Below, piece after piece: positions 5,270 through 46,410 of a stretch of 64,000 bases of DNA; position 1 is the first letter of the stretch, and each line of letters opens with the position of its first letter. The notes under the pieces are model-generated. The model was not told where the DNA came from. It saw only the letters and a program-made list of their open reading frames with translations, and did no database searches. A program made the translations under genes and the position numbers. Source of the DNA: an uncultured Mycoplasmatota bacterium (lineage in GTDB: Bacteria > Bacillota_I > Bacilli_A > RF39 > UBA660). The stretch covers positions 13,678-77,677 of the forward strand of contig CAOJEH010000001.1 in the NCBI GenBank assembly GCA_948434005.1. The letters are read 5' to 3'.

Positions 5270-5503
5270 TTATTTTTTTAGAACTATTTCTTTTATTTCT
5301 AGGCTATTTGTAAGTATATCATTATAACTATAAGATTTTGTTCTATTAGTATAATCATTTACTTTGACTGTAAATATTGATTTATAAACCCCTGTTATTT
5401 TTCCTATAAATTCTTCAGTTTGGTTTCTGGCACCTTTAAACTTAAATAAAAATAAATTACCTTTGTTACTTGTTATAAAACTTCTTATCTTATTTATATT
5501 CAT
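5270..5503 (-). CDS. veg: Veg protein (biofilm and sporulation associated)
   Basis: 77 aa; SYSYNDILT motif matching Veg SYSYADILT; lies directly downstream of yabG as in B. subtilis. Confidence 0.8.
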   Translation of the reverse strand: MNINKIRSFITSNKGNLFLFKFKGARNQTEEFIGKITGVYKSIFTVKVNDYTNRTKSYSYNDILTNSLEIKEIVLKK

Positions 5504-6288
5504 CTAGGATACCCCACATACATAGTACCATTTGTAATAATACCGCCTATACCATCGGCCCCGTATTTAGTTTTTTCTATTAGTGGAATTAAATCTATAC
5601 TTTTATTCTTAGCAGAAAGCGCTATTGTAGATGCAATTATAGCAGGATCTAGAGCATGTATATTAATTCTTTTAGGGCTAGATGCAAAATTTGATCCAGC
5701 CTTTATTAATTCTTCATAATTTGATTGACATGCTCCTGAAATAACTATTAATTTGTTTTCATCCTTTTCATATTTTCTAGCAACTTTAACTGCATTAATA
5801 AAATTCTTTGTATTTTGATAATTATCTATATTATTAGGATCTTTTTTCTTTTTATAAAATGCATCATGACCAGTCACTACTAATATATCGGGATTATACT
5901 TACTAAGGTATTCATCTAAATATTTAGAAATATCTTCTTCTTTTAATGAAATGCCATAGGCTTTAACATTTAAATCCTTATAAAAACTCATACATCTATT
6001 TAAATATTCCTCATCTCCATCTATATGAAGAATTTTTCCAGGTAAATAAAAATATTCATCTCTATTTAAATCTAAGTCTTTAATATTATCATTTATTATT
6101 TTTCTATCTGATTTACTTACATTATATACATCTTCTTCTTTTCGTAAATCATCAATTACACTATCAGCATATAACCTCAAATCTACTCCCTTTAATAATA
6201 TAATATCATCATTGATATCAATTACTTTAAATAATATATCATTATTATATGAATTTCTTGTTACTAAATCGCCCACTTTTAAATTCAT
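5500..6288 (-). CDS. yabG: Sporulation-specific protease YabG (peptidase U57)
   Basis: Motifs shared with B. subtilis YabG: GDLVTRNSY, LHIDGDEEYL, VVTGHDA, GACQS, ANFASSP, NIHALDP. Confidence 0.88.
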   Translation of the reverse strand: MNLKVGDLVTRNSYNNDILFKVIDINDDIILLKGVDLRLYADSVIDDLRKEEDVYNVSKSDRKIINDNIKDLDLNRDEYFYLPGKILHIDGDEEYLNRCMSFYKDLNVKAYGISLKEEDISKYLDEYLSKYNPDILVVTGHDAFYKKKKDPNNIDNYQNTKNFINAVKVARKYEKDENKLIVISGACQSNYEELIKAGSNFASSPKRINIHALDPAIIASTIALSAKNKSIDLIPLIEKTKYGADGIGGIITNGTMYVGYPR

Positions 6289-6366: not shown

Positions 6367-7860
6367 TTATTTTTTTATTTTTCTTTTTATAATTATTGTA
6401 CCTATCGATAATATTATAATAATTGAAGAGATAATTATATATTCCTTTTTTAGTATTTTATTTGATTTATGTAATTTATCTTCTTTTTCTATAGAAGGAT
6501 TTTTAATAGCTGAAGATTTATTTACACGTAATATATATTTTCGTTGATTACCATTTGGTGCTTTCACATTAATAGTTATTATATTCTTTGCAGACTTTAA
6601 CGATGTATCTGAAACAGTTACTTTACTATTTGGGTTCTCAGTTTTATAATCAATAAGTAGATTATCTATATTTTTACTAACCACTAAGTCATACTCTAAT
6701 ATATCCTTATCAAAACTTATTTTATAATCTGATACTTTTAATAATTTTAAATAATTATTTGAAGATGACTTTTTAATATTATCCTCATACGAACTTAAAG
6801 TTTTACTCTCTGATACACTATCATCCATTATAACGTTATTTGGTACTTTCCCATCTTTACTTTTTCTATTGATAGTAATCATATATACTTTTTTACTATT
6901 ATTCTCTGCCAAAACTGTAATAGCAAAAACATTTTTACCTACTTTTAAATCTTTTTTTCCTATACCATTTACTATAGATTTAGATGATGATGCTTTAGCA
7001 TTTATATTTACTGACGTAATATCATTATTAACTGTAGCTTCATAATTAGTTTTTGTAGAACTAAATTTTATAGGGATTTTACTTATTTGTAACATTTTTA
7101 AACTATTATCTGAATCTCTATTATCTTTTCTATATACCACTATTTTATAATCTTTAGTAGCTCCAGATTCTGATATTGATGTAATAGTAAAAGTATTTGA
7201 ACCATACTTCAATGTTTTTTTACCTGTACCCACTACATTACCATTTGTTGAAGCAGTAGCATAAATAGAAACTTCTGATTGATTTGTTGTTATATTATAA
7301 GTTGTTATTTCAGAATTAAATTTAGGAGATAAATTACCTATATTAACAGATAAATTAGTCAAATTACTATTTGTAGATACTACTTTTAAATCAATAAATT
7401 TAGATTCATAGTTATCCTCTTGATAATTCTCATTACCTATCTTTATATTATTTATTGATATTTTCCCACCATTTACATTTTTAACTCTTACCTTAAAGTT
7501 ACCTATATTTATTTTACCTGATAATAATGATGCAGTAGATAATATATATTTACCATTAACTGAACTTGAAAAGTCTTTTGAAAATTCATTTGAGAATTCT
7601 GAAGATACTAATTCTAAATTATTACTAAGCTCTAGTTGGGCCTGAAAAGAAGTTAGGCTTCCTTTATCTATATTAGCATCTATATTACAAGATATAGTAT
7701 CACCTAGTATTGCATTTTTTTTATCACATTTTAAAGTAATAGGATTATCATTAGATGTAGATGTAATATCTGTTAATAGTTTATTTTTATCAAAAATAGA
7801 AACAATCAATAATATAATACATAAACCCGCTATTACAAATAGCGCTATTTTATTTTTCAT
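6367..7860 (-). CDS. Membrane-anchored surface protein: signal peptide, cohesin-like domain, three cadherin-like beta-sandwich repeats, C-terminal TM anchor
   Basis: N-terminal signal/anchor MKNKIALFVIAGLCIILLIVSIF. Residues ~35-165 fit the cohesin pattern (ILGDTISCNIDANIDKGSLTSFQAQLELSNNLELVSSEF...), compared with CipA cohesins KPGDTVNIPVRF...DFVYSYDPNVLEI. Repeated ...YKIVVYRKD / YMITINRKSK / YILRVNKS modules. C-terminal hydrophobic stretch IIISSIIIILSIGTIII followed by KRKIKK. Confidence 0.55.
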   Translation of the reverse strand: MKNKIALFVIAGLCIILLIVSIFDKNKLLTDITSTSNDNPITLKCDKKNAILGDTISCNIDANIDKGSLTSFQAQLELSNNLELVSSEFSNEFSKDFSSSVNGKYILSTASLLSGKINIGNFKVRVKNVNGGKISINNIKIGNENYQEDNYESKFIDLKVVSTNSNLTNLSVNIGNLSPKFNSEITTYNITTNQSEVSIYATASTNGNVVGTGKKTLKYGSNTFTITSISESGATKDYKIVVYRKDNRDSDNSLKMLQISKIPIKFSSTKTNYEATVNNDITSVNINAKASSSKSIVNGIGKKDLKVGKNVFAITVLAENNSKKVYMITINRKSKDGKVPNNVIMDDSVSESKTLSSYEDNIKKSSSNNYLKLLKVSDYKISFDKDILEYDLVVSKNIDNLLIDYKTENPNSKVTVSDTSLKSAKNIITINVKAPNGNQRKYILRVNKSSAIKNPSIEKEDKLHKSNKILKKEYIIISSIIIILSIGTIIIKRKIKK

Positions 7861-7870
7861 ATTACACCTC

Positions 7871-10800
7871 CTATAATTTACTTATATTTTTCATAATATA
7901 TGCAAAAAGTTTAGATAAATCTGTTATTGTCACTCTATTATCATCATTAACGTCACTAGACTTTATATTTGGTAAATCAATACTATAATTATCATCTACT
8001 ATATACCTAAATAGCCTTGATATATCTGTTATACTAATTAATCCATCATTATTAATATCTCCTCTAACAGAAAGATAAATCTTATAGTTTTCACCATTAT
8101 TATCTATCATTTGAATATAACTACCTGTTGTTATAATATCAGTATCTTCAATTAAATTATTCTTAGAATTATATAAAGAATAGTGATAATTGCTATTAAA
8201 AGAGGTATTTTTAATAAATTCTTTTACTGTAGTTTGTACTCCTATATTATAAATTAAGTTATTTTCTATATCATACCCATAAACTTCTGTTTTAATTAAT
8301 CCATCTATTGACCATACTGCATATAAATCTATAGTTTCATCTTCATTTATTAAGTTGATAATCTCTTGCTGTTCACTATAAGTTTTTCCAGTACCATCCG
8401 GTTTTGTATTCCACCCAGAAAATTTATAATAACCATTTTTAAATGTATTTTCTAATAACTTATCACTAGCGTTAAAAGTAACACTTTGAGTAATTATATT
8501 ATCTTCATCTGTATTAGAATGATAATTTATATTATATTTAGAAACCTTTACAGATACAGGGAGAATCTTTTTTGTTCCATTTGATATACTAACTATAATA
8601 ATATTAGCACTACCTACAGCTTTTGCAGTTATATTTCCATTTTTATCTACTTCTAATATATCGTTATTATCTGAATAGTATACAACGCCCTTATTGAAAA
8701 TATTTCCTTCTACAGTAGATTCAATAACATAATTGTCACTATGCGATAAGTTTATAGTTAATTCAGAAATATTTGGTATTATATTTGAAACTTTATTAAC
8801 TACCTTTTTATTATTTATAGTTGGAAATGAATTATCAATTATCCAATTATTTTCAAAATTAGGCCAATTAAAGTTATTTTCTATATCATAAGCATCAATA
8901 TAATCTATCTTTTTTACATTTTCTTTAACCAATACATTTTGTGCGATAGTACCTTTAAAATAATTTATATTTTCAATATTAATGTTCTCATCAGTTAAAG
9001 GTGCTATAGATGAATCCCTACATACTAACTCATCACTACAATGAGAAGTATATTTTTCACCTGTTGATGATACTAATTCTTCTTTTCCTTCACAAGATAA
9101 ACATCCTATATTTCCTGTATTATAACCACTATTAACAAATAGATTACCTGTTATATTTACATTACCAGAAGAATCAAATGTCATATTATTTAACTGTCCT
9201 ACGCCTCCTGCTGCAAATATCTCTGCAGTAACATCTCCATAGTTAATAAAACTAGTAATATTAGCAGAATTAGTCTTTCCAATTAATCCCCCCACTATAT
9301 CTTGACTATCTACTTTAGCTGTATTTATAACTTTATCTAAAGTAGCCAATGTAGTTTCTCCACCAATTCCTCCTGCTATATTATTACCATTTACTATACC
9401 TTCATTGGCGCTATTTATTACACTAGCAATTTTTAAACTACCATAAATTCCACCTGATATTTTAGAGTAAATTTCTGAATTATTATAACAATTAGTAAAG
9501 CTTATAGGAACAAATGAATTAGAATTAGCTACTAGTCCCGCTGCTTTTCCTTCAGAAGAAATATTACTAGAAGTAATAGATACATTATCAATAATTATAT
9601 TTGATACATTACTATCTGCTTCTAAAGTTCCAACTAGTGCAGCCACGTTATTATTAGAAGAATTAACTATATTAAAATTTTGTAATGTAAGATTGCTAAA
9701 AATAGAATTATTATCATTCACTTTACTAACAGTAACTGAGTCAAATAAACCGTTACGTGTACTATATAATCCTGTTATCTTATGATTATCACCATCAAAT
9801 GTACCTTTAAAGTTTGTAATAGATTGCCAACCAGTACCACTATTATAAAATATTCCATTTTCATTTTGAGTATCATATGTAAGATCAATATCATTAGAAA
9901 GTTTATAAGAACTAGAGGTAGATGTTCTAATCAAATCTAAATCAGAAGGACTTTTTATAAGATATGGATTATCTATAGTTCCCTCTCCTTCTAAGGATAT
10001 ATATGGAGCTTCTATAATTAAAGAAGTTTCATCAAGATATTCTCCATTATGATATACCTCTATAATATACTCACCAGGTATTAACTTATTTGATACACTC
10101 ATAGATGCAATAACAAAGTCTCCTGATACAGCATTATCACTATAAGAATTAATATATTGAGATATATCTTTTCCATTTAAATCATATATCTTGTAATCTA
10201 ATGTTTCTCCCTCTGGTATACCATATACCTGAGATTCTATAGTAAAATCATAGCTAGGTACAATAACTTCTGTACTATAATCAACTGGTGAAGTAGTAAC
10301 ACTTGCTACACCATCACTATTTAAAAATAATTTAGGAGTTGATATATTTATAGGAGTAAGATAATCTGGATCTTCTATATGGAAAACACATTTATCTGAG
10401 CGCTCTAAATTTTTATCATATAAGTCTACTGTATACCATCCTTTTAAATCAATACCTACAGTATCTATTAATTTCCTGCCATTAGATGTCTTATAGTATA
10501 CTTTTACATTTCTATCAGTTGAATTAGAAAAAAATTTAAGTTTTGACATTCTTGAATCGATTGGTGCATTAAAAACTATCTTTTTTTGCTCTTTGCCCGA
10601 TACAGTAACATTTTCTAGTTTTGTATAATCAAGTTGATAATCCCATGTTCTATCTGCCATAGAAACCATTTTAGTCACTACAGCAGGCTCTACTGCTAAG
10701 CTATAGGGTAAATACAAGTATTTTTTTGCACTAGTATCTCCCCAAGAATTTTTTATAATCCACGACCCCTCTGTATTTTCGTGTATTACTGAGGCAGGAC

Positions 10801-11701
10801 AATCTTCAATAGACCTATTCCATTCACAATACTTATATTTATAATTATCATCCCAACCTATAATTTGCATAGCATGATCAGTACCTAGTCCATATAAAAC
10901 ATAATTATTATCATAAATATTACGACCAGTATTAGTATTTGGACTAATTGTCATTACATACATACCACCATAGTTTTTTACCATATGTTTTATCATATTA
11001 TAATCAGATTCTGAACTAAGATGAAAAGGCATATGTTTAGCCTCATCTACTTCATATAATGAACTACTATAATTATAAATTTCACTTTTTTTCTTCATTG
11101 TCGTATCATAATAATTACCACTTTTTAATATCTTCTTATCCCAACTTGCATCTTTTGTTGCATAACCAGATGTCGCTACATGCATAACATAATAAAAGTT
11201 TCCACCTCGACCTAAACTTCTATTTGCATAAGCAAATTTAAAGTCAAAAATACCATCATTTGATGTGGCATAATCAAGTTGCCTTTCTGAAAAAATTTGA
11301 CTACTAGAAGAAACTGGTTGATTGTTAGTTATCGCTAGATATGTCTCCATTTGAGCATTTGTTGCAAAAGACCAGCACAAACCTAATGAACCCTGATTTT
11401 TAATTGGTGTCATATAATTTTTGCCATCAATATCTCTAAGATCAAATTTTGAAGGTAAGTTTTCATCTATTTGTTCTATAGCTTCTGGAGTAGAATCTAC
11501 AATTAAATCCGTTGGTATTACTTCCCTTTTTTCTTGTTCATAAGAGCTCATTGTCAAATAATCAACAAAATCCGGGTTTAAATATGCCTCATTTGGTTGT
11601 TTATTTTTTTCTGTCAAAATTATATTATCAGTTTCGGCATAATAAGCTTTAATGTAATTTTTAGCTTCTTTAGGTAAATAACTATAACTAGAAGTTTCCA
11701 T
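7871..11701 (-). CDS. 1276-aa multidomain protein: papain-like (C1) cysteine peptidase, GLUG-motif beta-helix region, Big_2 domain, Listeria-Bacteroides repeats, C-terminal type-I dockerin. No N-terminal signal peptide.
   Basis: C1 catalytic motifs NQGSLGLCWSFA (Cys), GTDHAMQIIGWDD (His), IKNSWG (Asn). GLUG-like repeats AAGLVANS, AGGIGGET, VGGLIGKT, AAGGVGQL. Big_2-like VYYSDNNDILEVDKNGNITAKAVGSANIIIV. Listeria-Bacteroides repeat GYYKFSGWNTKPDGTGKTYSEQQ. Dockerin GDINNDGLISITDISRLFRYI ... SDVNDDNRVTITDLSKLFAYI at the C-terminus. A 10-bp gap to the downstream cohesin gene suggests an operon. Confidence 0.75.
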   Translation of the reverse strand: METSSYSYLPKEAKNYIKAYYAETDNIILTEKNKQPNEAYLNPDFVDYLTMSSYEQEKREVIPTDLIVDSTPEAIEQIDENLPSKFDLRDIDGKNYMTPIKNQGSLGLCWSFATNAQMETYLAITNNQPVSSSSQIFSERQLDYATSNDGIFDFKFAYANRSLGRGGNFYYVMHVATSGYATKDASWDKKILKSGNYYDTTMKKKSEIYNYSSSLYEVDEAKHMPFHLSSESDYNMIKHMVKNYGGMYVMTISPNTNTGRNIYDNNYVLYGLGTDHAMQIIGWDDNYKYKYCEWNRSIEDCPASVIHENTEGSWIIKNSWGDTSAKKYLYLPYSLAVEPAVVTKMVSMADRTWDYQLDYTKLENVTVSGKEQKKIVFNAPIDSRMSKLKFFSNSTDRNVKVYYKTSNGRKLIDTVGIDLKGWYTVDLYDKNLERSDKCVFHIEDPDYLTPINISTPKLFLNSDGVASVTTSPVDYSTEVIVPSYDFTIESQVYGIPEGETLDYKIYDLNGKDISQYINSYSDNAVSGDFVIASMSVSNKLIPGEYIIEVYHNGEYLDETSLIIEAPYISLEGEGTIDNPYLIKSPSDLDLIRTSTSSSYKLSNDIDLTYDTQNENGIFYNSGTGWQSITNFKGTFDGDNHKITGLYSTRNGLFDSVTVSKVNDNNSIFSNLTLQNFNIVNSSNNNVAALVGTLEADSNVSNIIIDNVSITSSNISSEGKAAGLVANSNSFVPISFTNCYNNSEIYSKISGGIYGSLKIASVINSANEGIVNGNNIAGGIGGETTLATLDKVINTAKVDSQDIVGGLIGKTNSANITSFINYGDVTAEIFAAGGVGQLNNMTFDSSGNVNITGNLFVNSGYNTGNIGCLSCEGKEELVSSTGEKYTSHCSDELVCRDSSIAPLTDENINIENINYFKGTIAQNVLVKENVKKIDYIDAYDIENNFNWPNFENNWIIDNSFPTINNKKVVNKVSNIIPNISELTINLSHSDNYVIESTVEGNIFNKGVVYYSDNNDILEVDKNGNITAKAVGSANIIIVSISNGTKKILPVSVKVSKYNINYHSNTDEDNIITQSVTFNASDKLLENTFKNGYYKFSGWNTKPDGTGKTYSEQQEIINLINEDETIDLYAVWSIDGLIKTEVYGYDIENNLIYNIGVQTTVKEFIKNTSFNSNYHYSLYNSKNNLIEDTDIITTGSYIQMIDNNGENYKIYLSVRGDINNDGLISITDISRLFRYIVDDNYSIDLPNIKSSDVNDDNRVTITDLSKLFAYIMKNISKL

Positions 11702-11776: not shown

Positions 11777-13042
11777 TTATTTTTGAAATATAGATTTCGC
11801 TTTTTTATAACATTTAAAACAGTTTTTATATAAATTATATTTTCCTGGAGATATAACTAAATCAAACTCACCAATCAATTCATGTACACAAGCATTAAAA
11901 CCTCTTTTAAAATCAAACAACCCATAATTCTTTGATTTTTTAGAGAAGTTTCCATCTATACCATAGAAATTAAAAGCTTCATAACCATTTTTTATAGCAT
12001 AATCTATCATCTCATATTGTAATAAGTATTGAGAATTATACTTCATAAATTTTTTATAACTAGCACCAAAGAGATAAACTATTTCTCTACCATAAAGCAT
12101 ATACCAACCACCAGCAATGATTTTTTTATCACCATATTCTTTTATTGTATCTTCTAATAATCTTATTTTATTTTTAATATTTTCTTGTTCCGCTGATAGT
12201 TCTTTTATTTGTCCTTTATTTCTAGGTATATCACTTAGTTTTTCTAACTTTTCCTTATTTTTCTTTAAATCTTCTTCTGTTTTATCCTTAAGTTTCTTAA
12301 AATTAATCTCTGCTAATAAAACTTTTACTAAATTATCTTTTTTTAATACCCTATACATATTCTCATAATATGATAATGGTCTATCAATAAAATCTCTTCT
12401 TTCAGCAGTATGTTTCATTAGATTCTTAAATTCATATAAGTTAGTTTCATCTGCTTCTATTATAGTTAAACAATTTTTTTTACTATTATTAATACCCCAA
12501 CGTGTACCACTACGCATATTTTTAAATAATCCATCTATAGTTTTATCTTTTATATCTAATATAGATATCCATCTAGGTTCTAAATCACTTTTTTTATCCT
12601 GATCGATATAAAAACCGTTATGTTTATAGCCAAGTCTTTTAAAATTATTCATTAATTCATCATTTACAGTACCTTCTACTATATTTCCATCTACATCTCT
12701 TTGTTGATAATCTATATATGGATTTATTTTTAAAAATAAAGCTGACTCATTTTTTAAATATTCTTTTATTCCTTTAGTAAATTCTTCTAATAATTGATAA
12801 TCAGAATAGTCTAATAAAAATCCTCTAGGCGCATAAAACATTTTACCAAAAAAACTAATATTTTTACTTAATAAAAGTGTTGCTGCCACGATTTTTTTAC
12901 CTTCTACTAATCCTACATAATGACTATTCCATCCATTACTCTTCTTTATTTTGCCCCAATAAGGATTTTGAAAAAAAGATGTTTGAATACTTGTTTTAGA
13001 AAACTCCAAAAATTCTTTTTCTTTTAATGTTATAAATTGCAT
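11777..13042 (-). CDS. FemAB-family peptidoglycan cross-bridge aminoacyl-tRNA transferase
   Basis: 421 aa; GNAT-like halves with a central coiled-coil arm (KKLKDKTEEDLKKNKEKLEKL...IKNKIRLLEDTIKEYG) typical of FemA/FemX/MurM; C-terminal GGWYMLYGREIVYLFGAS. Confidence 0.75.
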   Translation of the reverse strand: MQFITLKEKEFLEFSKTSIQTSFFQNPYWGKIKKSNGWNSHYVGLVEGKKIVAATLLLSKNISFFGKMFYAPRGFLLDYSDYQLLEEFTKGIKEYLKNESALFLKINPYIDYQQRDVDGNIVEGTVNDELMNNFKRLGYKHNGFYIDQDKKSDLEPRWISILDIKDKTIDGLFKNMRSGTRWGINNSKKNCLTIIEADETNLYEFKNLMKHTAERRDFIDRPLSYYENMYRVLKKDNLVKVLLAEINFKKLKDKTEEDLKKNKEKLEKLSDIPRNKGQIKELSAEQENIKNKIRLLEDTIKEYGDKKIIAGGWYMLYGREIVYLFGASYKKFMKYNSQYLLQYEMIDYAIKNGYEAFNFYGIDGNFSKKSKNYGLFDFKRGFNACVHELIGEFDLVISPGKYNLYKNCFKCYKKAKSIFQK

Positions 13043-13074: not shown

Positions 13075-13860
13075 TTACAATACATTACTAATATCTACAA
13101 ATGCTTCAACTGGAATTTGTTCTGCTCTAGCAGTTAAATCTAGCTCATATTTTTTTAATACAGCCTCAATAGACTTCAAATCATAACCATTTAAATTATT
13201 TTTAATATTTTTTCTTTTAAACTTAAAACTATCTTTTACTAACTTAAAAAAAGTTTTTTCATTATTTAATTTTAATAAATTGTTTTTTCTAGAAAAAGAT
13301 ATAACTTCACTATCAACATTAGGAATGGGAGTAAAACTTTTTCTATTTACCTTAAATTCTTTTTTTATTTCAAAATAGTAATTCAAAAATACGGTTATAG
13401 ATCCATAGCTTCTACTATTAACTTTAGCAGAAAATCGTTCTCCTACTTCTTCCTGTACCATCATAACTATTTTATTAAAATTAAGATCAGATTCTATTAA
13501 CTTCATTAATATTGGTGTTGTTATATAGTATGGAACATTACTTACAAAATACAAGTTGTCATAGCTATATTCTTCTATATCATTTTTAATATCTCTATTT
13601 AAAAAATCATTAAAAATGAAATCTACATTACTATTCTTAAACTCAGATTCTAATATATCTTTTAATTCTAAGTCTATTTCATAACATAACACATTATCTG
13701 CTTGTAAAGATAATTCTTTAGTAAGTATTCCCTTGCCTGGTCCAACTTCTAAAACTAAAGATTTTTTTGATATTTCTGCTATAGATGCAATCTTTTTAAC
13801 TATTGTATTATCATTTAAAAAATTTTGACCATATTTCTTTTTAAAGTTAAAATGCTCCAT
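13075..13860 (-). CDS. rsmA: 16S rRNA (adenine1518/1519-N6)-dimethyltransferase RsmA/KsgA
   Basis: N-terminal KKYGQNFL; SAM motif LEVGPGKGILT; 261 aa. Confidence 0.92.
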   Translation of the reverse strand: MEHFNFKKKYGQNFLNDNTIVKKIASIAEISKKSLVLEVGPGKGILTKELSLQADNVLCYEIDLELKDILESEFKNSNVDFIFNDFLNRDIKNDIEEYSYDNLYFVSNVPYYITTPILMKLIESDLNFNKIVMMVQEEVGERFSAKVNSRSYGSITVFLNYYFEIKKEFKVNRKSFTPIPNVDSEVISFSRKNNLLKLNNEKTFFKLVKDSFKFKRKNIKNNLNGYDLKSIEAVLKKYELDLTARAEQIPVEAFVDISNVL

Positions 13861-13902: not shown

Positions 13903-14358
13903 CTATAAAACCTCTATATTATTTTTAGCTTGTCTCCTCTTTTTATTTATACATACCATAAATAAAATATTACTAATACATAAGCCATAAACCAATATTT
14001 TCATAAAAGCTATATAATCACTAAAATAAATGAAATTTATATTATAACCCATAACCCTATTTAAAATCATATTAGTATCACAAATTGCTCTAATTCCAAC
14101 TACTATAGTAGTAGAAAATACTAAGCAACAAGTTAAATTATAAAATAGATTACTATTAACACTTTTTTGACGAAATATAATATTTATAAAAAATATTATC
14201 AATAATATAGCATATGGTAAAAAGATATTTATAGATTCTATCATATCTTTACTTAACCTTTTATACATAGATAAAACTATATAAAAAGAAATAGCAAAAG
14301 CTCCTAAGAATAAAATATATCTTAAACCTAATAATATAACATTAATTATCTTTTTCAT
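13903..14358 (-). CDS. Polytopic membrane protein (4 TM), unknown function, last gene of the sipW cluster
   Basis: Hydrophobic 151 aa; 4-nt overlap with the upstream ORF. Confidence 0.5.
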   Translation of the reverse strand: MKKIINVILLGLRYILFLGAFAISFYIVLSMYKRLSKDMIESINIFLPYAILLIIFFINIIFRQKSVNSNLFYNLTCCLVFSTTIVVGIRAICDTNMILNRVMGYNINFIYFSDYIAFMKILVYGLCISNILFMVCINKKRRQAKNNIEVL

Positions 14359-15047
14359 ATATTTCCTCCTGCCATATTTTTATATAAAACTGATGTATCA
14401 TACATAAAATCAACTACGTTAACATAATCATACAAGATAGAATAATAACTATCTTTAAGTTGATCATAAATATTATCCTTTGTACTACGACTAGTGAAAT
14501 TATAACTACTATTATTCTTAATTATTTTTTCTATATAATCAGTTGAACCCTTTAGTCCATTTATATTATCTTCCATAAACGGTATAGTTGATTTATAAAC
14601 TGGCATACTACCAAATATAGAATTATCTTCTGTAGTCAAACCATATAATTGTTTAACTAAACATTCATTAGCAATATCTATTTTATAAAATTGTTGCATC
14701 TCATATACATCACTTATAGAAACAGTTTCTTTTTGTAAAATATTATCTAATTTAGAGTTACTTATTTTATCCATACAAATATTAAGTTTAGTTTGAAAAA
14801 CAGAAAGATTAGTATAGTTCTGATTTGTAATATTTAAATTTACTGAATTAATATTTTCATTTATTTTATTTATTTTTTCTTTTATTTCAGTATTTATTTG
14901 ATAATCACTATCTTGTTTATTGTATAAATCATTTACATCTTTATAATGATAAAGATTTAAAAACAATAGAAAAAAGGCAAAGCCAAAGACTAAACCAGAT
15001 ATTGTATAGGCCATTATATTTGAATATTCTACTAGTATCTTTTTCAT
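14355..15047 (-). CDS. N-terminally membrane-anchored Asn/Tyr-rich protein of unknown function in the sipW cluster
   Basis: Single N-terminal TM (YTISGLVFGFAFFLLFLNLY), then a polar 200-aa extracellular region. Position is analogous to tapA in tapA-sipW-tasA, but I see no sequence similarity. Confidence 0.45.
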   Translation of the reverse strand: MKKILVEYSNIMAYTISGLVFGFAFFLLFLNLYHYKDVNDLYNKQDSDYQINTEIKEKINKINENINSVNLNITNQNYTNLSVFQTKLNICMDKISNSKLDNILQKETVSISDVYEMQQFYKIDIANECLVKQLYGLTTEDNSIFGSMPVYKSTIPFMEDNINGLKGSTDYIEKIIKNNSSYNFTSRSTKDNIYDQLKDSYYSILYDYVNVVDFMYDTSVLYKNMAGGNI

Positions 15048-15056
15048 ATTTACCCT

Positions 15057-15590
15057 CTATTCTTTTATTGGTTCTACAGTTATATTATAACTATAATATT
15101 TATTCATCCAATCTGTTTCCTTAGATTTTTCATTTAACCATATTTTTAATGAATAACTATTAGTAGAATTTGTACTCATAGTTCTAGTATCCAATATATT
15201 ATTCTTAATATTAGACATAGTCCCTTTCTTAATAACCACACCATTTAGTTTTAGTTCATAATTTAAATAACTTCTTGATAAGGTATTCTCTCCTTTTTCT
15301 TTATCAATTATATCTTCTATAAGTAAATCATAAGTAGCGTTCTCCTCCTTAGTATTACTAATAGAAAATTCATAAGGTACTATAATATCTATATTATTAT
15401 CACTTATTGGTCCCAAATCTTTAAAATCATCTTTTGATACATCACTATCTGCTGATATTTCAAAATTATTGGCTATAAAATCATCTTTCTTTATTATTTT
15501 TGAAAATATAAATATTAATACTAAAAGTATTAGAATAATTATTACACCAATTAAAATATATAGTCCTTTCTTTCTTTTCATGTATATCAC
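15057..15590 (-). CDS. TasA-like secreted protein, paralogue 3 (SipW-cognate substrate candidate)
   Basis: N-terminal basic and hydrophobic signal (KKGLYILIGVIIILILLVLIFIF). Shares the C-terminal motif YSLKIWLNE...YSYNITVEP with the paralogues at 16524 and 17165 (YRLRIWIKE...YKLKVDVY; YRLRMWLGE...YTVKINVY). Confidence 0.55.
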   Translation of the reverse strand: MIYMKRKKGLYILIGVIIILILLVLIFIFSKIIKKDDFIANNFEISADSDVSKDDFKDLGPISDNNIDIIVPYEFSISNTKEENATYDLLIEDIIDKEKGENTLSRSYLNYELKLNGVVIKKGTMSNIKNNILDTRTMSTNSTNSYSLKIWLNEKSKETDWMNKYYSYNITVEPIKE

Positions 15591-15598
15591 TCCTATTC

Positions 15599-16447
15599 CT
15601 ATAATATTTCTATATCATCTTCAGTATCCTTACTATTTATAGAAGAGTTTTTTTCTTTATAGGCATTTATTTTATCTCTTAATTCTTCTTCTACATCTTC
15701 AGTATTATCTTCTTTTTTTGGAATATCTGAATCGCTTATAATTTCTATATTATCAGTATCTTCAGAATCTAAATTAGAATTAGAAACCTTCTCTTTGTTT
15801 GTAGGTAACCTTCTAGGATTAATTGCTTTAAACATTTTAATAATATCATAAATAACAACTCCCAAACAAGGTATTACAATTAAAACAACCCAACCAACAG
15901 CATTTGTAAGTGCCTGTTGTATATAACCAATTTTTGGAATTTTAAGCATAACTTTTCCATAAATATTACTAGCCCTTACTAAGGAAGAATCTTCGGTATT
16001 ATTATTATCTCCTTTTGTTCTAAAGTAAATTTCGCCAGTTTTAGATTTTTCAATTCCAACTATACGATGTGTAATAACAAGTCCAGAATATCTAGAATCG
16101 GTAGATAAAAAAGTTATTACATCATCAACTTCTAATTCTTCTGGTTCTGCCCTTTTTATAACAATAGCATCATATACATTTATTGTTGGTACCATACTAG
16201 GACTAATTATTATATAAGCTCCAAAAAGAGGTTGTTTATCAATTCCTTTTTTTGCATTTATTTGCTCATCAATAAAGTATAGTATAAATGCTATAGCAAC
16301 TAAAATAAGTATCATTAATATAGAATATAAGAATATTTTGGCAGCAAAGTGATATATTTTATATGCAAGTTGAAGTTTAGTCATACGTGGTTTTTTTTGT
16401 TTTTCTTGGTTACTTATCTGTTCTAATACTGCATCCACTTTTGCCAC
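15599..16447 (-). CDS. sipW: Signal peptidase I, ER/archaeal type (SipW-like), with an ~80-aa acidic C-terminal tail
   Basis: Catalytic Ser box IISPSMVPTI; His instead of Lys in ITHRIVGI; TKGDNNNTEDS, which is the GDNN..D motif of SEC11/SipW-type enzymes; single TM. The unusual D/E/S-rich C-terminal extension is read directly from the sequence. Confidence 0.8.
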   Translation of the reverse strand: MAKVDAVLEQISNQEKQKKPRMTKLQLAYKIYHFAAKIFLYSILMILILVAIAFILYFIDEQINAKKGIDKQPLFGAYIIISPSMVPTINVYDAIVIKRAEPEELEVDDVITFLSTDSRYSGLVITHRIVGIEKSKTGEIYFRTKGDNNNTEDSSLVRASNIYGKVMLKIPKIGYIQQALTNAVGWVVLIVIPCLGVVIYDIIKMFKAINPRRLPTNKEKVSNSNLDSEDTDNIEIISDSDIPKKEDNTEDVEEELRDKINAYKEKNSSINSKDTEDDIEIL

Positions 16448-16523
16448 CTCCCATTATTCTATGCTACTTATATAATAGCATGAAAATAAGAAAATTGCAC
16501 TAAAAAAGAAACAAGTTTGTTTC

Positions 16524-17138
16524 TTATTTTTTACTAAGCTCTGAATATACATCAACTTTTAATTTATAAGTCATAACTCTATCATATGAACAAGCATTTT
16601 CTTTTATCCATATTCTTAACCTATATTTATCTGTTATTGTAGCATTTTTTTCACTATTAACAGTACTTTTATATAATAACATACTATCTTTATTTACATA
16701 AGTATTTTCAAGATCTGTATCTTTTGGTATAAAGGTTTTAGGTTCTAATACTGATTTATATTTGCCTGCCATTTCTTTTTCTAAATATATATTTACACAA
16801 TTATTAGGAAGTCTATTATTATTTTTATAATCTGTTCTTCTAGCTCTTATTTCATAATCAATTGCGGCTTTACCATTGATGTTAGCCGATACGGTAAAAT
16901 CAAAATATTCTTTCTGTAATTTTCCTGCGGAATCTGACATTGGAACTGCATTATCAATTGCTATAACATTATCACTTTCAGTATATGTCATTGATATATT
17001 ACCAGTTGAAATTGTATTTTTTTTCATACCCTTACCAGTAAACATAAATATTGCATAGGAAATTCCAATTACTGCAACAAAAAGAATTGCAATACCTATT
17101 ATTGATAATAATATATTTCTTGAATCTGTATTTTGCAT
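16524..17138 (-). CDS. TasA-like secreted protein, paralogue 2. The ORF track starts at 17168; the likely true start is MQNTDS at 17138.
   Basis: Signal ILLSIIGIAILFVAVIGISYAIFMF with an A-x-F motif like TasA AAF; shares EYFDFTV and YRLRIWI motifs with the neighbouring paralogue. Confidence 0.6.
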   Translation of the reverse strand: MQNTDSRNILLSIIGIAILFVAVIGISYAIFMFTGKGMKKNTISTGNISMTYTESDNVIAIDNAVPMSDSAGKLQKEYFDFTVSANINGKAAIDYEIRARRTDYKNNNRLPNNCVNIYLEKEMAGKYKSVLEPKTFIPKDTDLENTYVNKDSMLLYKSTVNSEKNATITDKYRLRIWIKENACSYDRVMTYKLKVDVYSELSKK

Positions 17139-17164
17139 ATAACCTCCTCTATAAAAGAGTAAAA

Positions 17165-17803
17165 TCACTCTGTTTTTCCATAAACATTTATTTTTACTGT
17201 ATATGTTTTATTACCACCCACTGATGCATCTTCTCCTAGCCACATCCTAAGTCTATAATTATCTATTGTTTTAGTTACCTTTTCCTTTTTTATTTCTTTT
17301 TTTCCACGTTTTCTTACAACTCTCTTCAATACCATAGCGCCTTTTGGAGTTCCAATTTTTGTTTCTTTTGGAGATGGAATAAAGTTATTTGGTTTCATTA
17401 CTTTAGTATAAGTTCCACTTTTTTCTTGTTCTAAATACAATCTAATTTCATTATCAGGTATAGTAGATGCTTCATCTTTAATAGCTGCTATCTCATAAAT
17501 TGCTTTCATATTACCAACTAATTTTGTATTAACAATAAAGTCAAAATATTCATTTTCACCTAATTGAACCATACCTTTCTCATCACTAGTAGGTAATGCA
17601 TTTTCTATTGAAATACCATTTGTTTTTTCTAGATAATTCATTGTTATTTCTCCTGAATGAATAGTATTACTAATTCCACCCTCTGTTTTTATAAAAGCAG
17701 CAAACGAAAAACTTATTACTACTACTACTAATAGTGTTACTAGTAATAATGATATAAATATCTTTTTAGAATAATTCTTATCTAATTGTTCTGTTTCTTT
17801 CAT
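17165..17803 (-). CDS. TasA-like secreted protein, paralogue 1
   Basis: Signal KKIFISLLLVTLLVVVVISFSFAAFIK (AAF as in the TasA signal peptide region); motifs EYFDFIV, YRLRMWL and KINVY shared with paralogue 2. Confidence 0.6.
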   Translation of the reverse strand: MKETEQLDKNYSKKIFISLLLVTLLVVVVISFSFAAFIKTEGGISNTIHSGEITMNYLEKTNGISIENALPTSDEKGMVQLGENEYFDFIVNTKLVGNMKAIYEIAAIKDEASTIPDNEIRLYLEQEKSGTYTKVMKPNNFIPSPKETKIGTPKGAMVLKRVVRKRGKKEIKKEKVTKTIDNYRLRMWLGEDASVGGNKTYTVKINVYGKTE

Positions 17804-17861: not shown

Positions 17862-18620
17862 TTATCTATTGAAGTCAAACAAATCATTACAGTTTATCGT
17901 AGTTATTTTAGCTACTTCTTCTACGGTTGTATTTTTTATTATAGATATTTTTTCTGCAATTATTGGTATATACTTAGATGAATTTATTTTTCCTCTATAT
18001 GGGTCAGGTGTTAAATACGGACTATCTGTTTCTAATACAATATTATCTAATGAAATATTTTTTATAACATCTGGTAGTTTACTATTTTTAAAAGTTACTA
18101 CACCACCTATACCTAATTTATATCCCATTTTTATATAAATATTTGCTGTCTCTAAACTCCCTGAAAAACAGTGTATAATTCCTTTAACTTTATATTTATT
18201 TAATATATCGATTGTATCTTTTGATGCATCTCTACTATGAATAATTACAGGTAAATCTAATTTTTCCGCAAGTTTTAATTGAATTTCAAATAGTTTTTTC
18301 TGTTTTTCTTTATCAATACCATCATAATGATAATCCAACCCTATCTCACCTATTCCTAATATTTTTTCATTAGATTTCAATAAATTCTCTAAATTATTAA
18401 TATCTTTATCAACTATTATACTAGCTTGATCAGGATGATAACCAATAGTTGCATAAACTATATCGTATTTTTTAGTCATTTCTATAGCTTCATCTACACT
18501 ATCTATTTCACATCCTGATATAATCATTTTATTTATAGAAACCTTAATATTTTCTTTTATAACCAAATCTATATCATTATAATCCTTTTTTGATAAATGA
18601 CAATGTGTATCTATAAACAT
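17862..18620 (-). CDS. tatD: TatD-family metal-dependent DNase (YabD)
   Basis: MFIDTHCHL start; conserved TIM-barrel hydrolase motifs (GEIGLDY, HSRDA, ETDSPYL); downstream of metG as in B. subtilis metS-yabD. Confidence 0.9.
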   Translation of the reverse strand: MFIDTHCHLSKKDYNDIDLVIKENIKVSINKMIISGCEIDSVDEAIEMTKKYDIVYATIGYHPDQASIIVDKDINNLENLLKSNEKILGIGEIGLDYHYDGIDKEKQKKLFEIQLKLAEKLDLPVIIHSRDASKDTIDILNKYKVKGIIHCFSGSLETANIYIKMGYKLGIGGVVTFKNSKLPDVIKNISLDNIVLETDSPYLTPDPYRGKINSSKYIPIIAEKISIIKNTTVEEVAKITTINCNDLFDFNR

Positions 18621-20787: not shown

Positions 20788-21318
20788 TTATTCTTCAATA
20801 TGTTTACCTAAAAAACTTGAAATTATTGAAGCCAATTTTACATCACTATCAGTTATACCTTCTTTATCAGAAAATATAACAACATTTCCCACTACATCAC
20901 CATTCATAATAATAGGACTAATTACAAAAGCTAAACTCTCATTAACTCCATCTACAATCTCAACATCATGTAAATCTTTTTCTACTACCATTTCCCTACT
21001 ATTAAGTTTCTGCTCTAAATATTTTGAAATATTTTTATCCAAATATTGCATTTTTATATTACTAGATGCTGATATAACTTTATCTCTATCAGTAATAATA
21101 ACATTTTTAAGTATAGTTTGATTAATCGTATTAACTAAATTATTAGAAATTTCCTTTATATCAGACATAGAAGAATACTTTTTTAGAGTAATCATCTCAT
21201 TTTCTACAAATATTTCTAACGATTCACCATCTCGTATTCTTAATGTTCTTCTTAATTCTTTTGGAATAACAATTCTTCCTAAATCATCTATTCTTCTTAC
21301 TACGCCAGTTGTTTTCAC
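20788..21318 (-). CDS. spoVT: Stage V sporulation protein T (AbrB-type N-domain plus GAF domain)
   Basis: N-terminus MKTTGVVRRIDDLGRIVIPKELRRTLRIRDGESLEIFV, nearly identical to B. subtilis SpoVT; C-terminal GAF-like GDVVGNVVIFSDK; 176 aa; lies next to mfd. Confidence 0.9.
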   Translation of the reverse strand: MKTTGVVRRIDDLGRIVIPKELRRTLRIRDGESLEIFVENEMITLKKYSSMSDIKEISNNLVNTINQTILKNVIITDRDKVISASSNIKMQYLDKNISKYLEQKLNSREMVVEKDLHDVEIVDGVNESLAFVISPIIMNGDVVGNVVIFSDKEGITDSDVKLASIISSFLGKHIEE

Positions 21319-44639: not shown

Positions 44640-44930
44640 AAAGTAATTAAGTTTATTCTACATTAAATTGTGTAAAAAATAAATAGAAAAACAAAATTTT
44701 CTTTTTTCCACAAAAAAATAACAAAATTATCAACAATCAAAATCAAGTGAAAGGGTCTTTTAAAAAGTTTTCCACATTTTCCACAAATTTTATTAATCAA
44801 CTGTTATTTTTATTTTCCACATACTTGTGGATTTTGTGAAAACAAAAAAAACTAAAAATATAGTATATTTATTTGACAAAACATCATATTTACTATTATA
44901 ATAATGTAGATTTATGTCTGGAGGTGGAAT
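44640..44930. promoter_or_regulatory. oriC: oriC DnaA-box cluster between dnaA and rpmH, including the rpmH sigma-A promoter
   Basis: TTTTCCACA (1 mismatch to TTATCCACA) at 44704-44712, 44768-44776, 44777-44785 (direct tandem) and 44814-44822; inverted TGTGGATTT at 44826-44834. Consensus promoter TTGACA (44873-44878), 18-nt spacer, TATAAT (44897-44902). GGAGGTGG RBS before rpmH. Confidence 0.75.
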
Positions 44931-44932
44931 AA

Positions 44933-45055
44933 ATGAAAAGAACATATCAACCAAACAATCGTAAAAGAGCAAAAAAGCATGGATTCTTTGCTCGTAAAAT
45001 AACAAATATATTAAATAATCGTCGTCGTAAAGGACGTAAAAAATTATGTAACTAA
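44933..45055 (+). CDS. rpmH: 50S ribosomal protein L34
   Basis: [22 protein letters not shown]...RRRKGRKKL; 40 aa; absent from the supplied ORF track because it is under 60 aa; strong RBS. Confidence 0.85.
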
Positions 45056-45105
45056 TCCACAAGTTTTATACTGTGGTTTTTTACATTTATAGATAGGTGA
45101 TATAT

Positions 45106-45438
45106 ATGAAAAAAAAGTATATAGTTAAAAAACAACAGGATTTCAATACTTTGATTAAAACTGGAAAAAAAATATATAGTAAATACTTTGTCATATATTA
45201 TAAAGATAATAATATGAATCACAGTAGATATGGAATATCAGTAGGAACTAAACTAGGTAATGCTGTATTTAGAAATAATCATAAAAGAAAAATCAGAATG
45301 ATAATAGACAAAAATGATGATATAAAAATAAAGAAAAATGATTTTATAGTATTACTTAGAAAAAAAGGTTCGAATTTAAAATATTGTGAATTACAACAAG
45401 ATTTTAATATATTAGTAAGTAAAATAAAGGAGAAATAA
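45106..45438 (+). CDS. rnpA: RNase P protein component. The ORF track begins at a GTG at 45097; ATG 45106 (MKKKY) preceded by AGGTGA is more likely.
   Basis: Basic 110-aa protein immediately after rpmH; FRNNHKRKIR resembles the RNR motif region. Confidence 0.85.
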   Translation: MKKKYIVKKQQDFNTLIKTGKKIYSKYFVIYYKDNNMNHSRYGISVGTKLGNAVFRNNHKRKIRMIIDKNDDIKIKKNDFIVLLRKKGSNLKYCELQQDFNILVSKIKEK

Positions 45439-46410
45439 ATGAAAAAAAGAAAAAAGAAAATACTTCTAATATTAGTAGTTGCAGTACTTTTATTAACAAC
45501 AGGGTGTACAAAAACTTTAACAGATAAGAAAAATAATCCTGTTAAAAATGAAATAACAGGACAAAATCTAACTAAAAATATTATTTGTAAGCCTACTAGT
45601 AAAGAGACAATTAAACTATATAAAAAAAATGGTGTTAAGGTTAATAAATTACCTGATTGCAAAAAATTTAAAGTAACCAGCGGAAAATATGAGGGACTAT
45701 GGACTAGTTTATTTATAAAGCCCTTAGCTTTTATACTTATATTATTAGGAAATAAAATAGGTAATTATGCAGTATCATTAATAATAATAAGCTTAATAAT
45801 AAGATTAATAGCATTCCCATTTACTAAAAAGACCGCAATGCAGTCAGAATTAATAAAAGAAGCTCAACCAGAACTAAATAGAATTCAAAATAAGTATAAA
45901 GATAAACAAGACCAAGCTTCATTAACTAAACAAAGCCAAGAAATGATGGCCGTATATAAGAAATATAATATAAGTCCAATGTCAGGTTGTTTATTTTCAA
46001 TGATTCAATTACCATTATTTATAGCCTTTTTTGAAGCAGTTCAAAGAACCCCAGCAATTTTTGAAGATAAATTTTTAGGCTTACAATTAGGTACAACTCC
46101 AGTAGTGGGATTTGGAACTAGTGCCATAGTAGCATATATAATTTTAATGCTTTTAATTGCAGTATCTACATTAGGATCATTTAAATTAAATATGTCAGGA
46201 AATTCATTAGATCCTAGTATGAAAATGATGCCAGTAATGATGAGTATAATGATAATAATAATGGGACTCTTTATGCCATCAGCATTAGGTATATATTGGA
46301 TAACAACTAACTTATTTACAATATTTCAAAATTTATTAGTTAAAAGGAGTAAGAATAATTATGGAAAAAAAGACTTACATAGGAAAAACCAAAGAAGAAG
46401 CAATAAGTAA
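45439..46410 (+). CDS. yidC: Membrane protein insertase YidC/SpoIIIJ (lipoprotein form)
   Basis: Lipobox LLLTTGC; five-TM YidC core (...FPFTKKTAMQSELIKEAQPELNRIQNKYKD...PMSGCLFSMIQLP...); basic C-terminal tail. Confidence 0.9.
   Translation: MKKRKKKILLILVVAVLLLTTGCTKTLTDKKNNPVKNEITGQNLTKNIICKPTSKETIKLYKKNGVKVNKLPDCKKFKVTSGKYEGLWTSLFIKPLAFILILLGNKIGNYAVSLIIISLIIRLIAFPFTKKTAMQSELIKEAQPELNRIQNKYKDKQDQASLTKQSQEMMAVYKKYNISPMSGCLFSMIQLPLFIAFFEAVQRTPAIFEDKFLGLQLGTTPVVGFGTSAIVAYIILMLLIAVSTLGSFKLNMSGNSLDPSMKMMPVMMSIMIIIMGLFMPSALGIYWITTNLFTIFQNLLVKRSKNNYGKKDLHRKNQRRSNK

Follow-up and report, generated by a model that had tools for sequence, protein, structure and literature searches.

Which function is served by the gene cassette that separates tatD from ksgA/rsmA in an uncultured gut Mycoplasmatota bacterium? 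We addressed this question in a window of 64 kb (contig CAOJEH010000001.1, positions 13,678–77,677; coordinates below are those of the window), where six co-directional and tightly packed open reading frames (ORFs) of the minus strand fill the interval between tatD (17862–18620) and ksgA/rsmA (13075–13860). In the order of reading, they encode the P1 and P2 proteins, a SipW-like signal peptidase, a third protein called P3, and two membrane proteins, O5 and O6. A sequence-only reading had seen in this region a signal peptidase operon with three TasA-like substrates. The balance of the evidence presented below tips slightly in favor of a SipW-dependent surface-fiber cassette, the subunits of which would form either a remote, unannotated branch of the TasA superfamily or a close analogue of it. 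The direct observations behind this reading are the family and catalytic residues of the peptidase, the paralogy of the P proteins, their cleavage-type motif, their jelly-roll models and the conservation of the cassette.

The peptidase (15599–16447; 282 residues as listed, 279 if translation starts at GTG 16438, the likely true start according to public gene calls) is of the archaeal/ER type, as had been proposed, and S26B-like in MEROPS terms. It passes TIGR02228, the model for archaeal-type signal peptidase I, with 97.2 bits (cut-off 51.85, E-value 8.5e-28), and stays below the cut-offs of both the LepB-type model TIGR02227 (18.9 bits versus 47) and the Bacillus SipW equivalog model NF046067 (92.7 bits versus 190). 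Judged by these models, it belongs to the same broad type as Bacillus SipW and is not its equivalog. The identity of the essential residues was taken from what has reportedly been established for SipW. The three expected boxes, SPSMVPT (Ser84), THRIV (His127) and TKGDNN (Asp147), are all present, with His replacing the Lys of LepB, and Ser84, His127, Asp147 and Asp153 are invariant across 76 aligned peptidase homologues. The hydropathy profile displays two transmembrane segments, TM1 (residues 38–56) and TM2 (residues 185–203), which, with the K-rich N-terminus on the inside, predict that the catalytic domain lies outside the cell and the 73-residue tail (residues 210–282, 15602–15820) in the cytoplasm. 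This tail had been described as an unusual acidic extension of some 80 residues. The acidity stands (22 D/E versus 11 K/R), whereas tail length varies from 0 to 83 residues among the homologues, with a median of 24 and a short conserved part, which rules out the length as a defining feature. A literature search returned no paper tying SipW to RF39-type gut lineages.

The genes around the peptidase gene code for proteins related to each other to unequal degrees. P1 (17165–17803, 212 residues), the candidate major subunit, consists of a K-rich n-region, a hydrophobic segment (residues 15–33) and a predicted jelly-roll domain. P2 (16524–17138) is a paralogue of P1 (37% identity, E-value 3e-37), and the two share a SFA↓AF or SYA↓IF sequence (the arrow marks the putative cleavage site) as well as the EYFDF and YRLR(M/I)W motifs. 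Note that the P2 ORF as listed starts further upstream, at GTG 17168 (16524–17168); the likely start is ATG 17138, 3′ of the ribosome-binding site AGAGGAGG, which gives the 204 residues found in public gene calls. P3 (15057–15581, 174 residues from the likely start ATG 15581; listed as 15057–15590) is undetectable as a P1/P2 paralogue by BLASTP, and its kinship appears at the profile level: hhalign pairs the P1/P2 profile (A2, 32 sequences) with the P3 profile (A3, 19 sequences) over 130 columns with a probability of 94.4% and an E-value of 8.5e-8, and the A2 hidden Markov model (HMM) detects P3 orthologues at E-values of 1e-4 to 1e-9. The motifs of P3 are correspondingly altered. It has YSLKIWL, to be compared with YRLR(M/I)W(L/I), and PYEFSIS where P1 and P2 have EYFDF(I/T)V, and its hydrophobic segment ends without a small-x-small or AxF motif, for which reason P3 is probably a signal-anchored minor subunit or an anchor. 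The idea of three paralogues, each with a SipW-cognate signal ending in AAF or AIF and with both C-terminal motifs, thus holds for P1 and P2, the signal at the motif level, and for P3 is reduced to a remote relationship and one recognizable motif. In place of the triplicated fiber subunit that had been envisaged, the sequences suggest a cassette that probably comprises two cleavable subunits and one remote, uncleaved minor paralogue. A loop of P1 (17252–17305, residues ~167–184) carries a lysine-rich insertion (residues ~167–177, KKEIKKEKVTK, within 164-RKRGKKEIKKEKVTKTID-181) that is shared by its closest relatives only, the top eight rows of A2; P2 and all other family members lack it.

The region around P1 residues 33–37 (S33-F34-A35↓A36-F37) holds the putative SipW cleavage site. 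In 213 HMM-aligned members, position −3 is S, T, A or G in 86%, position −2 is F or Y in 83%, position −1 is A in 57% (plus S/T) and position +2 is F or Y in 89%. Next come [TS]-[YF]-[ST] and, further on, N-x-I-x-T-G-x-I-S-M-x-Y. The P family therefore displays the motif-level features of SipW-cognate substrates, namely a small residue, an aromatic residue and Ala at −3/−2/−1 and an aromatic residue at P2′; the motif is absent from P3 and from the first-gene paralogues of the minimal loci described below. According to one study of TasA, this protein is cleaved at TWA↓AF, and its P2′ Phe makes it a SipW substrate and a poor substrate of LepB (PMC10269814). When the P profiles are aligned by hhalign with those of TasA and CalY, the alignment covers the N-terminal 48–57 columns only, and its register, although statistically insignificant, places SFA↓AF on TWA↓AF and NTIHSGEITM on ATFASGTLDL, in keeping with the claimed resemblance of the P1/P2 cleavage-site region to that of TasA. 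In this register, F29 and F39 of TasA, which are donor-strand contact residues (PMC9674648), fall on F37 and I48 of P1, the latter position being I, V or L in 77% of members. Conservation extends past the cleavage site (+2 F/Y, +4 Y/F), which argues that the mature N-terminus is itself functional. These motifs suggest that P1 and P2 may be cleaved by the adjoining SipW-type peptidase. The conserved, amphipathic character of the mature N-terminus and the low-confidence arm in the structural model of P1 are indirect evidence that the subunits may polymerize by donor-strand exchange through an N-terminal arm (residues 36–47 in P1).

AlphaFold2 models computed with family alignments reached a predicted local distance difference test score of 84.1 for P1 and 83.5 for P3. 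Both consist of an N-terminal helix corresponding to the hydrophobic segment, a low-confidence linker (residues 41–47 in P1, 35–39 in P3) and a β-sandwich of about nine strands. As for the proposed comparison with the TasA jelly-roll, the predicted folds are jelly-rolls and their best structural neighbors include the TasA fiber. The CanX cannulae (9h8b) rank 20 for P1 and 4 for P3, and P3 additionally has Hyper2 at rank 13 (9bac) and AbpA, a bundling pilin, at rank 22 (7ueg). The four matched fibers, CanX, Hyper2 and AbpA among them, are donor-strand-complemented and have been assigned to the TasA superfamily. The models lend some support to a TasA-like jelly-roll, which is not proof of family membership.

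Several results weigh against placing the P proteins in the TasA superfamily or reading the cassette as a fiber locus. Scans of all six cassette proteins against Pfam and NCBIfam annotated the peptidase only. P1, P2 and P3 matched nothing in these collections at E ≤ 1, including PF12389, NF046066 and TIGR04088, and for P1 and P2 nothing relevant was found even at E ≤ 10 (PF12389, TIGR04088), so that the HMM searches recommended by the sequence-only reading went against it. The positive controls TasA and CalY obtained 129 and 316 bits on the TasA/CalY models and were also strong matches to TIGR04088, CalY with 46.2 bits (threshold 19 bits). A weak link in favor of kinship comes from the relative P0188, which gave sub-threshold matches through its N-terminus to the TasA model (E-value 0.0013, limited to the N-terminal 66 residues) and to TIGR04088 (11.8 bits). 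Profile–profile comparisons were not significant either: 0.9% probability (E-value 0.064) against TasA plus CalY (A4), 9.8% (E-value 0.0033) for a broadened P profile (A6) against a 17-member TasA/CalY alignment (A5), and 6.7% for the P3 profile against A5. These values fall short of the literature threshold for homology within the TasA superfamily, which is above 90%, in a comparison where the known members were represented by TasA/CalY only. PDB sequence searches with P1, P3 and the P1 profile returned nothing meaningful, and a Foldseek search of the PDB with the P1 model returned generic jelly-rolls only, with TM-scores of 0.2–0.3 and no TasA. Cleavage of P1 and P2 by the adjoining peptidase is a motif-based prediction. 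Finally, the cassette sits in an origin-proximal string of housekeeping genes behind a σA-like promoter, unlike the biofilm-regulated tapA operon. At the sequence level, the P family is thus a TasA analogue or a remote relative, family membership being not demonstrable. The family is large: with E ≤ 1e-3 as the limit, an exhaustive HMM search retrieved 3,592 cluster representatives. Of the 175 close homologues of P1, the 120 that were listed carry neither a precomputed Pfam domain nor a name in their source; likewise, no P-family member checked had a Pfam domain or a source name for the P module.

The conservation of the cassette was assessed in 80 species-level loci obtained from a scan of species-representative genomes, all of them metagenome-assembled genomes (MAGs) of uncultured gut bacteria variously labeled Bacilli, Tenericutes, Mycoplasmatota or Erysipelotrichaceae and including Candidatus Onthousia and Candidatus Faecimonas (Bacilli incertae sedis). 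The cassette occupies the tatD–ksgA gap in all 80. Where the contig suffices, metG and tatD are followed by the P-family genes, the gene for the SipW-type peptidase, an optional P3-O5-O6 or O5-O6 group, and ksgA, and the P-family genes lie directly 5′ of the peptidase gene in every contig that extends that far. Between one and six P-family members were detected per locus, and at least two in 76 of the 80 (these counts include P3-type members detected by HMM); of the four loci with a single copy, three are truncated or atypical. In its minimal form, the cassette comprises the peptidase and two paralogues, of which one bears the cleavage motif and the other does not. In such minimal loci (L024–L080), the first gene after tatD encodes a divergent P-family member (HMM E-values of 1e-6 to 1e-23) that has neither the S-[FY]-A↓x-F motif nor the arm, which is some ten residues long elsewhere. 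Nearly every locus therefore pairs motif-bearing and motif-less paralogues. The cassette had been taken for an insertion between tatD and ksgA. Its position is as described, and its presence in 80 of 80 loci rules out a recent insertion and indicates a fixed, ancient feature of the lineage.

The mechanism that we propose is as follows. P1 and P2 would be exported by the Sec pathway and cleaved after S-[FY]-A by the dedicated archaeal-type peptidase encoded between P1/P2 and P3. Cleavage would free a mature N-terminus of the A-F-x-[YF] type, which would serve as the donor β-strand completing the jelly-roll of a neighboring subunit, and the subunits would polymerize on the cell surface. P3 or, in minimal loci, the product of the motif-less first gene, both of which lack the motif and the arm, would probably act as membrane-anchored base or minor subunits. 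O5 and O6 may be accessory membrane proteins and, more speculatively, large paralogues headed by a P module might be displayed by means of this same N-terminal module.

The architecture of the cassette fits that of published TasA-superfamily loci, which combine a signal peptidase I, paralogous major and minor subunits, anchors and accessory proteins. The sequence-only reading had singled out the B. subtilis tapA-sipW-tasA locus. The parallel extends to an archaeal-type peptidase encoded among its substrates and carrying a tail beyond TM2, to substrates of about 200 residues with a (here predicted) jelly-roll fold, to a [ST]-aromatic-A↓x-F site followed in register by a G-x-[IL]-x-[LM] first strand, and to a minor, differently processed partner, TapA there and P3 here. 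What survives of that resemblance includes the SipW-type peptidase with cognate-looking substrates; membership of the TasA family does not, the corresponding models being unmatched. Besides the absence of significant TasA homology and a peptidase score below the SipW equivalog cut-off, the cassette differs from its B. subtilis counterpart in having no detected TapA homologue, two additional genes (O5 and O6), a setting in a housekeeping string and not in a SinR-type regulated operon, one to six subunits detected per locus, and an N-terminal module that is also fused to giant adhesin-like proteins. The sipW-bsaA-bsaB-bsaC locus of Clostridium perfringens and the sipW-tasA-calY locus of B. cereus are closer in that they hold several TasA-like paralogues in a SipW operon, for which heteropolymers or minor subunits have been proposed; their families are likewise divergent by BLAST and linked by profiles or structure only, and BsaA polymers are membrane-anchored and not sortase-anchored, as we propose here. 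Unlike these systems, the cassette lacks a vWA protein and shows no connection to type IV pili. In the AbpX, AbpA and Tafi loci, the major subunit is likewise accompanied by a TIGR02228-type signal peptidase I, minor subunits, tips, anchors and peptidase-accessory proteins, whereas O5 and O6 are not DUF5305 proteins, the peptidase has two transmembrane segments instead of ten, and the host belongs to the low-GC gut Bacilli. Chaperone–usher and type V pili are mechanistic analogues only: they share N-terminal donor-strand complementation and adhesin subunits that carry a pilin module, whereas here chaperone, usher and outer membrane are all absent, and there is no homology between the proteins.

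The main competing explanation is that the peptidase is the general housekeeping signal peptidase of the lineage, its main or only type I enzyme, and that the P proteins are abundant, non-polymerizing, monomeric surface proteins, either membrane-anchored or secreted, which would form a lineage-specific coat or the base of adhesins and would simply happen to be encoded beside the peptidase. We regard it as unlikely, with an appreciable residual chance. It would account for the location among housekeeping genes near the origin (pth, mfd, spoVT, metG, tatD ... ksgA, with dnaA some 27 kb away), for the σA-like promoter upstream and for the fact that all related genomes examined have the cassette; a scan of 36 window ORFs found no further S26 peptidase, many large, unrelated surface proteins begin with the P domain, and the structural matches are to generic β-sandwiches as much as to TasA. 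This explanation is at odds with the strict pairing of subunit and peptidase genes across the 80 loci and with a tandem copy number of one to six, typical of pilin or fiber sets. It also leaves out the conservation that reaches into the mature N-terminus (+2 F/Y in 89%, +4 Y/F), which a signal peptide alone does not need, and the window, at 64 kb, is too short a part of the genome to establish that the organism lacks a LepB-type enzyme.

It is distinctly improbable that the SipW-processed subunits belong to the endospore, in a layer associated with the coat or in an appendage, and not to vegetative cells. TasA was originally described as CotN, a protein associated with spores, some TasA homologues are labeled spore coat proteins in their sources, and genes for SpoVT (20788–21318) and YabG (5500–6288) flank the region; the order of these genes, however, reflects a conserved Bacillus-like synteny, hence no functional link, and the best promoter match is of the σA type with an extended −10 element. 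That P1, P2 and P3 are camelysin-like (Peptidase_M73) surface metalloproteases is so improbable that we discard it, since the idea draws on nothing but the historical name of the TasA/CalY family PF12389, which the P proteins do not match, their invariant alignment columns contain neither His nor a metal-binding motif, and the protease assignment of CalY itself is held to be a likely misidentification (PMC11580942).

Coming back to the surface-fiber reading, the P module is not restricted to small proteins. About one third of the best 150 HMM matches are proteins of 330–1,743 residues in which an N-terminal P module precedes Big_2, Listeria–Bacteroides (Flg_new) or other repeats. The longest example, with 2,346 residues, is encoded at an unrelated locus of a related MAG (L039, 8001–15041). 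It is in these large adhesin-like members that the cleavage site is cleanest, with the consensus G-[IV]-[ST]-Y-A↓A-F-[ST]-[YF]-[ST]. Among 46 multidomain relatives, some of which may be clipped by contig ends, none has a C-terminal transmembrane segment or an LPXTG-like signal. A broader proposal would make the P domain a general, sortase-independent display module: once freed by cleavage, the N-terminal strand would attach small subunits as well as giant adhesins, by donor-strand complementation, to uncleaved, membrane-anchored paralogues such as P3, and a C-terminal motif common to the peptidase and O6 would tie both processing and assembly to a cytoplasmic partner, a form of inside-out control. 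We consider this proposal rather doubtful; if true, such an assembly platform has not been described for any TasA-type system. A small P3-like gene lies 650 nt downstream of the gene for the 2,346-residue protein, and further large P-headed examples, with Big_2, Flg_new or DUF6273 repeats, are found at L079 (491–2359) and among proteins P0145–P0283.

The two membrane proteins that were said to complete the operon do so, O5 with one transmembrane segment and O6 with four. O5 (14355–15047, 230 residues) is a type II membrane protein whose single transmembrane segment is N-terminal and whose ectodomain displays two invariant cysteines, C91 and C129, and a conserved C-terminal S-x-W-Y sequence. 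Searches with O5 in Pfam and NCBIfam, and with its profile in the PDB, found no relative; it matched neither the P family nor a known fold, which rules it out as a further P-family paralogue or as a member of such a fold. O6 (13903–14358, 151 residues), the start of which overlaps the O5 stop by 4 nt, terminates in NIEVL-COOH. A DUF5305-type role as signal peptidase I accessory proteins was not borne out for O5 or O6, which have no Pfam match at E ≤ 1 and carry one and four transmembrane segments, respectively, where the DUF5305 architecture combines a β-sandwich, two transmembrane segments and a cytoplasmic α/β part. O5 and O6 always co-occur (38 loci), and the median length of the peptidase is 246 residues where they are present versus 209 where they are not.

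The tail of the peptidase is of low complexity and, in the sub-clade of the window, contains an internal (Y)IE(I/V)I sequence and ends in DD(I/L)E(I/V)(I/L)-COOH. In the window itself, these are NIEII and DDIEIL (15602–15619). O6 proteins end likewise, in NIEVL (13906–13920 in the window), EIEVL or DLEVL. Among 1,108 ORFs of at least 100 residues from the 80 loci, the terminal pattern [ILV][ED][IVLY][ILV] occurs 41 times, always in a peptidase (26 of 75) or an O6 protein (15 of 38); in the window, it is found in two of 65 ORFs, again the peptidase and O6. In another sub-clade, the two proteins both have basic termini. Since the motif is common to the C-termini of both proteins and both C-termini are predicted to be cytoplasmic, a common cytoplasmic partner is suggested; the one explanation that we can offer is a cytoplasmic binding, sorting or turnover signal. 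The C-terminal region of B. subtilis SipW is said to have a peptidase-independent role in biofilm formation.

SipW-type peptidases associated with TasA-like subunits, often several per operon, are known. What is new here, as far as the sequences tell, is (i) a subunit family too divergent for every curated model and for every TasA/CalY profile test; (ii) the fixed origin-proximal position of the cassette across an uncultured gut lineage, with two new accessory membrane proteins; (iii) probably, an uncleaved paralogue in place of TapA; (iv) an N-terminal module heading anchorless, giant adhesin-like proteins; and (v) the C-terminal motif common to the peptidase and O6. If the surface-fiber reading is true, a whole uncultured lineage of animal-gut Bacilli builds its main surface fibers, or its adhesin display, by a TasA-type, SipW-dependent system that annotation has missed, and structures for gut colonization become bound to a tractable mechanism. 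The cassette would then be a compact case for the anchoring of donor-strand fibers without sortase or TapA. The P family would justify a new HMM, and the motif shared by the peptidase and its partner membrane protein O6 is a new lead.

Turning to the features of the locus that may bear on expression, a candidate σA promoter lies 5′ of P1 (17850–17878, minus strand) and consists of TTGACT, a 17-nt spacer and TAATAT with an extended −10 TG. It is the sole site between 12900 and 19000 with TG before the −10 hexamer. As a promoter it is supported by its consensus only, and promoter-like sites were on the whole no more numerous than in shuffled sequence. Between the P2 stop and the peptidase gene, a weak, AT-rich hairpin followed by a T-run (16502–16523, minus strand; GAAACAAACUUGUUUC UUUUUU) has a predicted energy of −7.2 kcal/mol and a z-score of −1.8, which is weak evidence, and a terminator scan did not call it; it may act as a leaky terminator raising the ratio of subunit to peptidase transcripts. 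The GC content is ~20–28% throughout, with no compositional break.

The window corresponds to the origin-proximal part of a Bacillus-like chromosome. The flanking genes were identified by PF01026 (tatD, upstream, minus strand, 2.5e-76) and TIGR00755 (ksgA/rsmA, downstream, minus strand, 232 bits). The minus strand carries dnaA, dnaN, recF and gyrB as far as 44637, whereas yidC, jag and mnmE are encoded by the plus strand starting at 45439, which brackets the replication origin region at ~44640–45440; the cassette is ~27–31 kb from oriC and co-oriented with replication. Other genes of the window are tadA, dnaX, recR, holB, rsmI, pth, mfd, spoVT, metG, femAB, yabG, tilS and ftsH. The FemAB-family gene (11777–13042) implies the presence of peptidoglycan. 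The two sporulation genes mentioned above, both on the minus strand, encode the YabG coat protease (Peptidase_U57, 4.8e-91) and SpoVT, which has a SpoVT_C domain and an AbrB-type N-terminal domain; they suggest that the lineage is, or once was, an endospore former, though many of its MAGs are labeled Tenericutes or Mycoplasmatota. Finally, a minus-strand gene at 7871–11701 encodes a 1,276-residue protein with a papain-family (C1) peptidase domain, Big_2 and Listeria–Bacteroides repeats and a C-terminal type I dockerin, and is adjoined by a gene (6367–7860, minus strand) for a 497-residue protein with cadherin-like β-sandwich domains; the dockerin implies that this gut organism possesses a partner with a cohesin.

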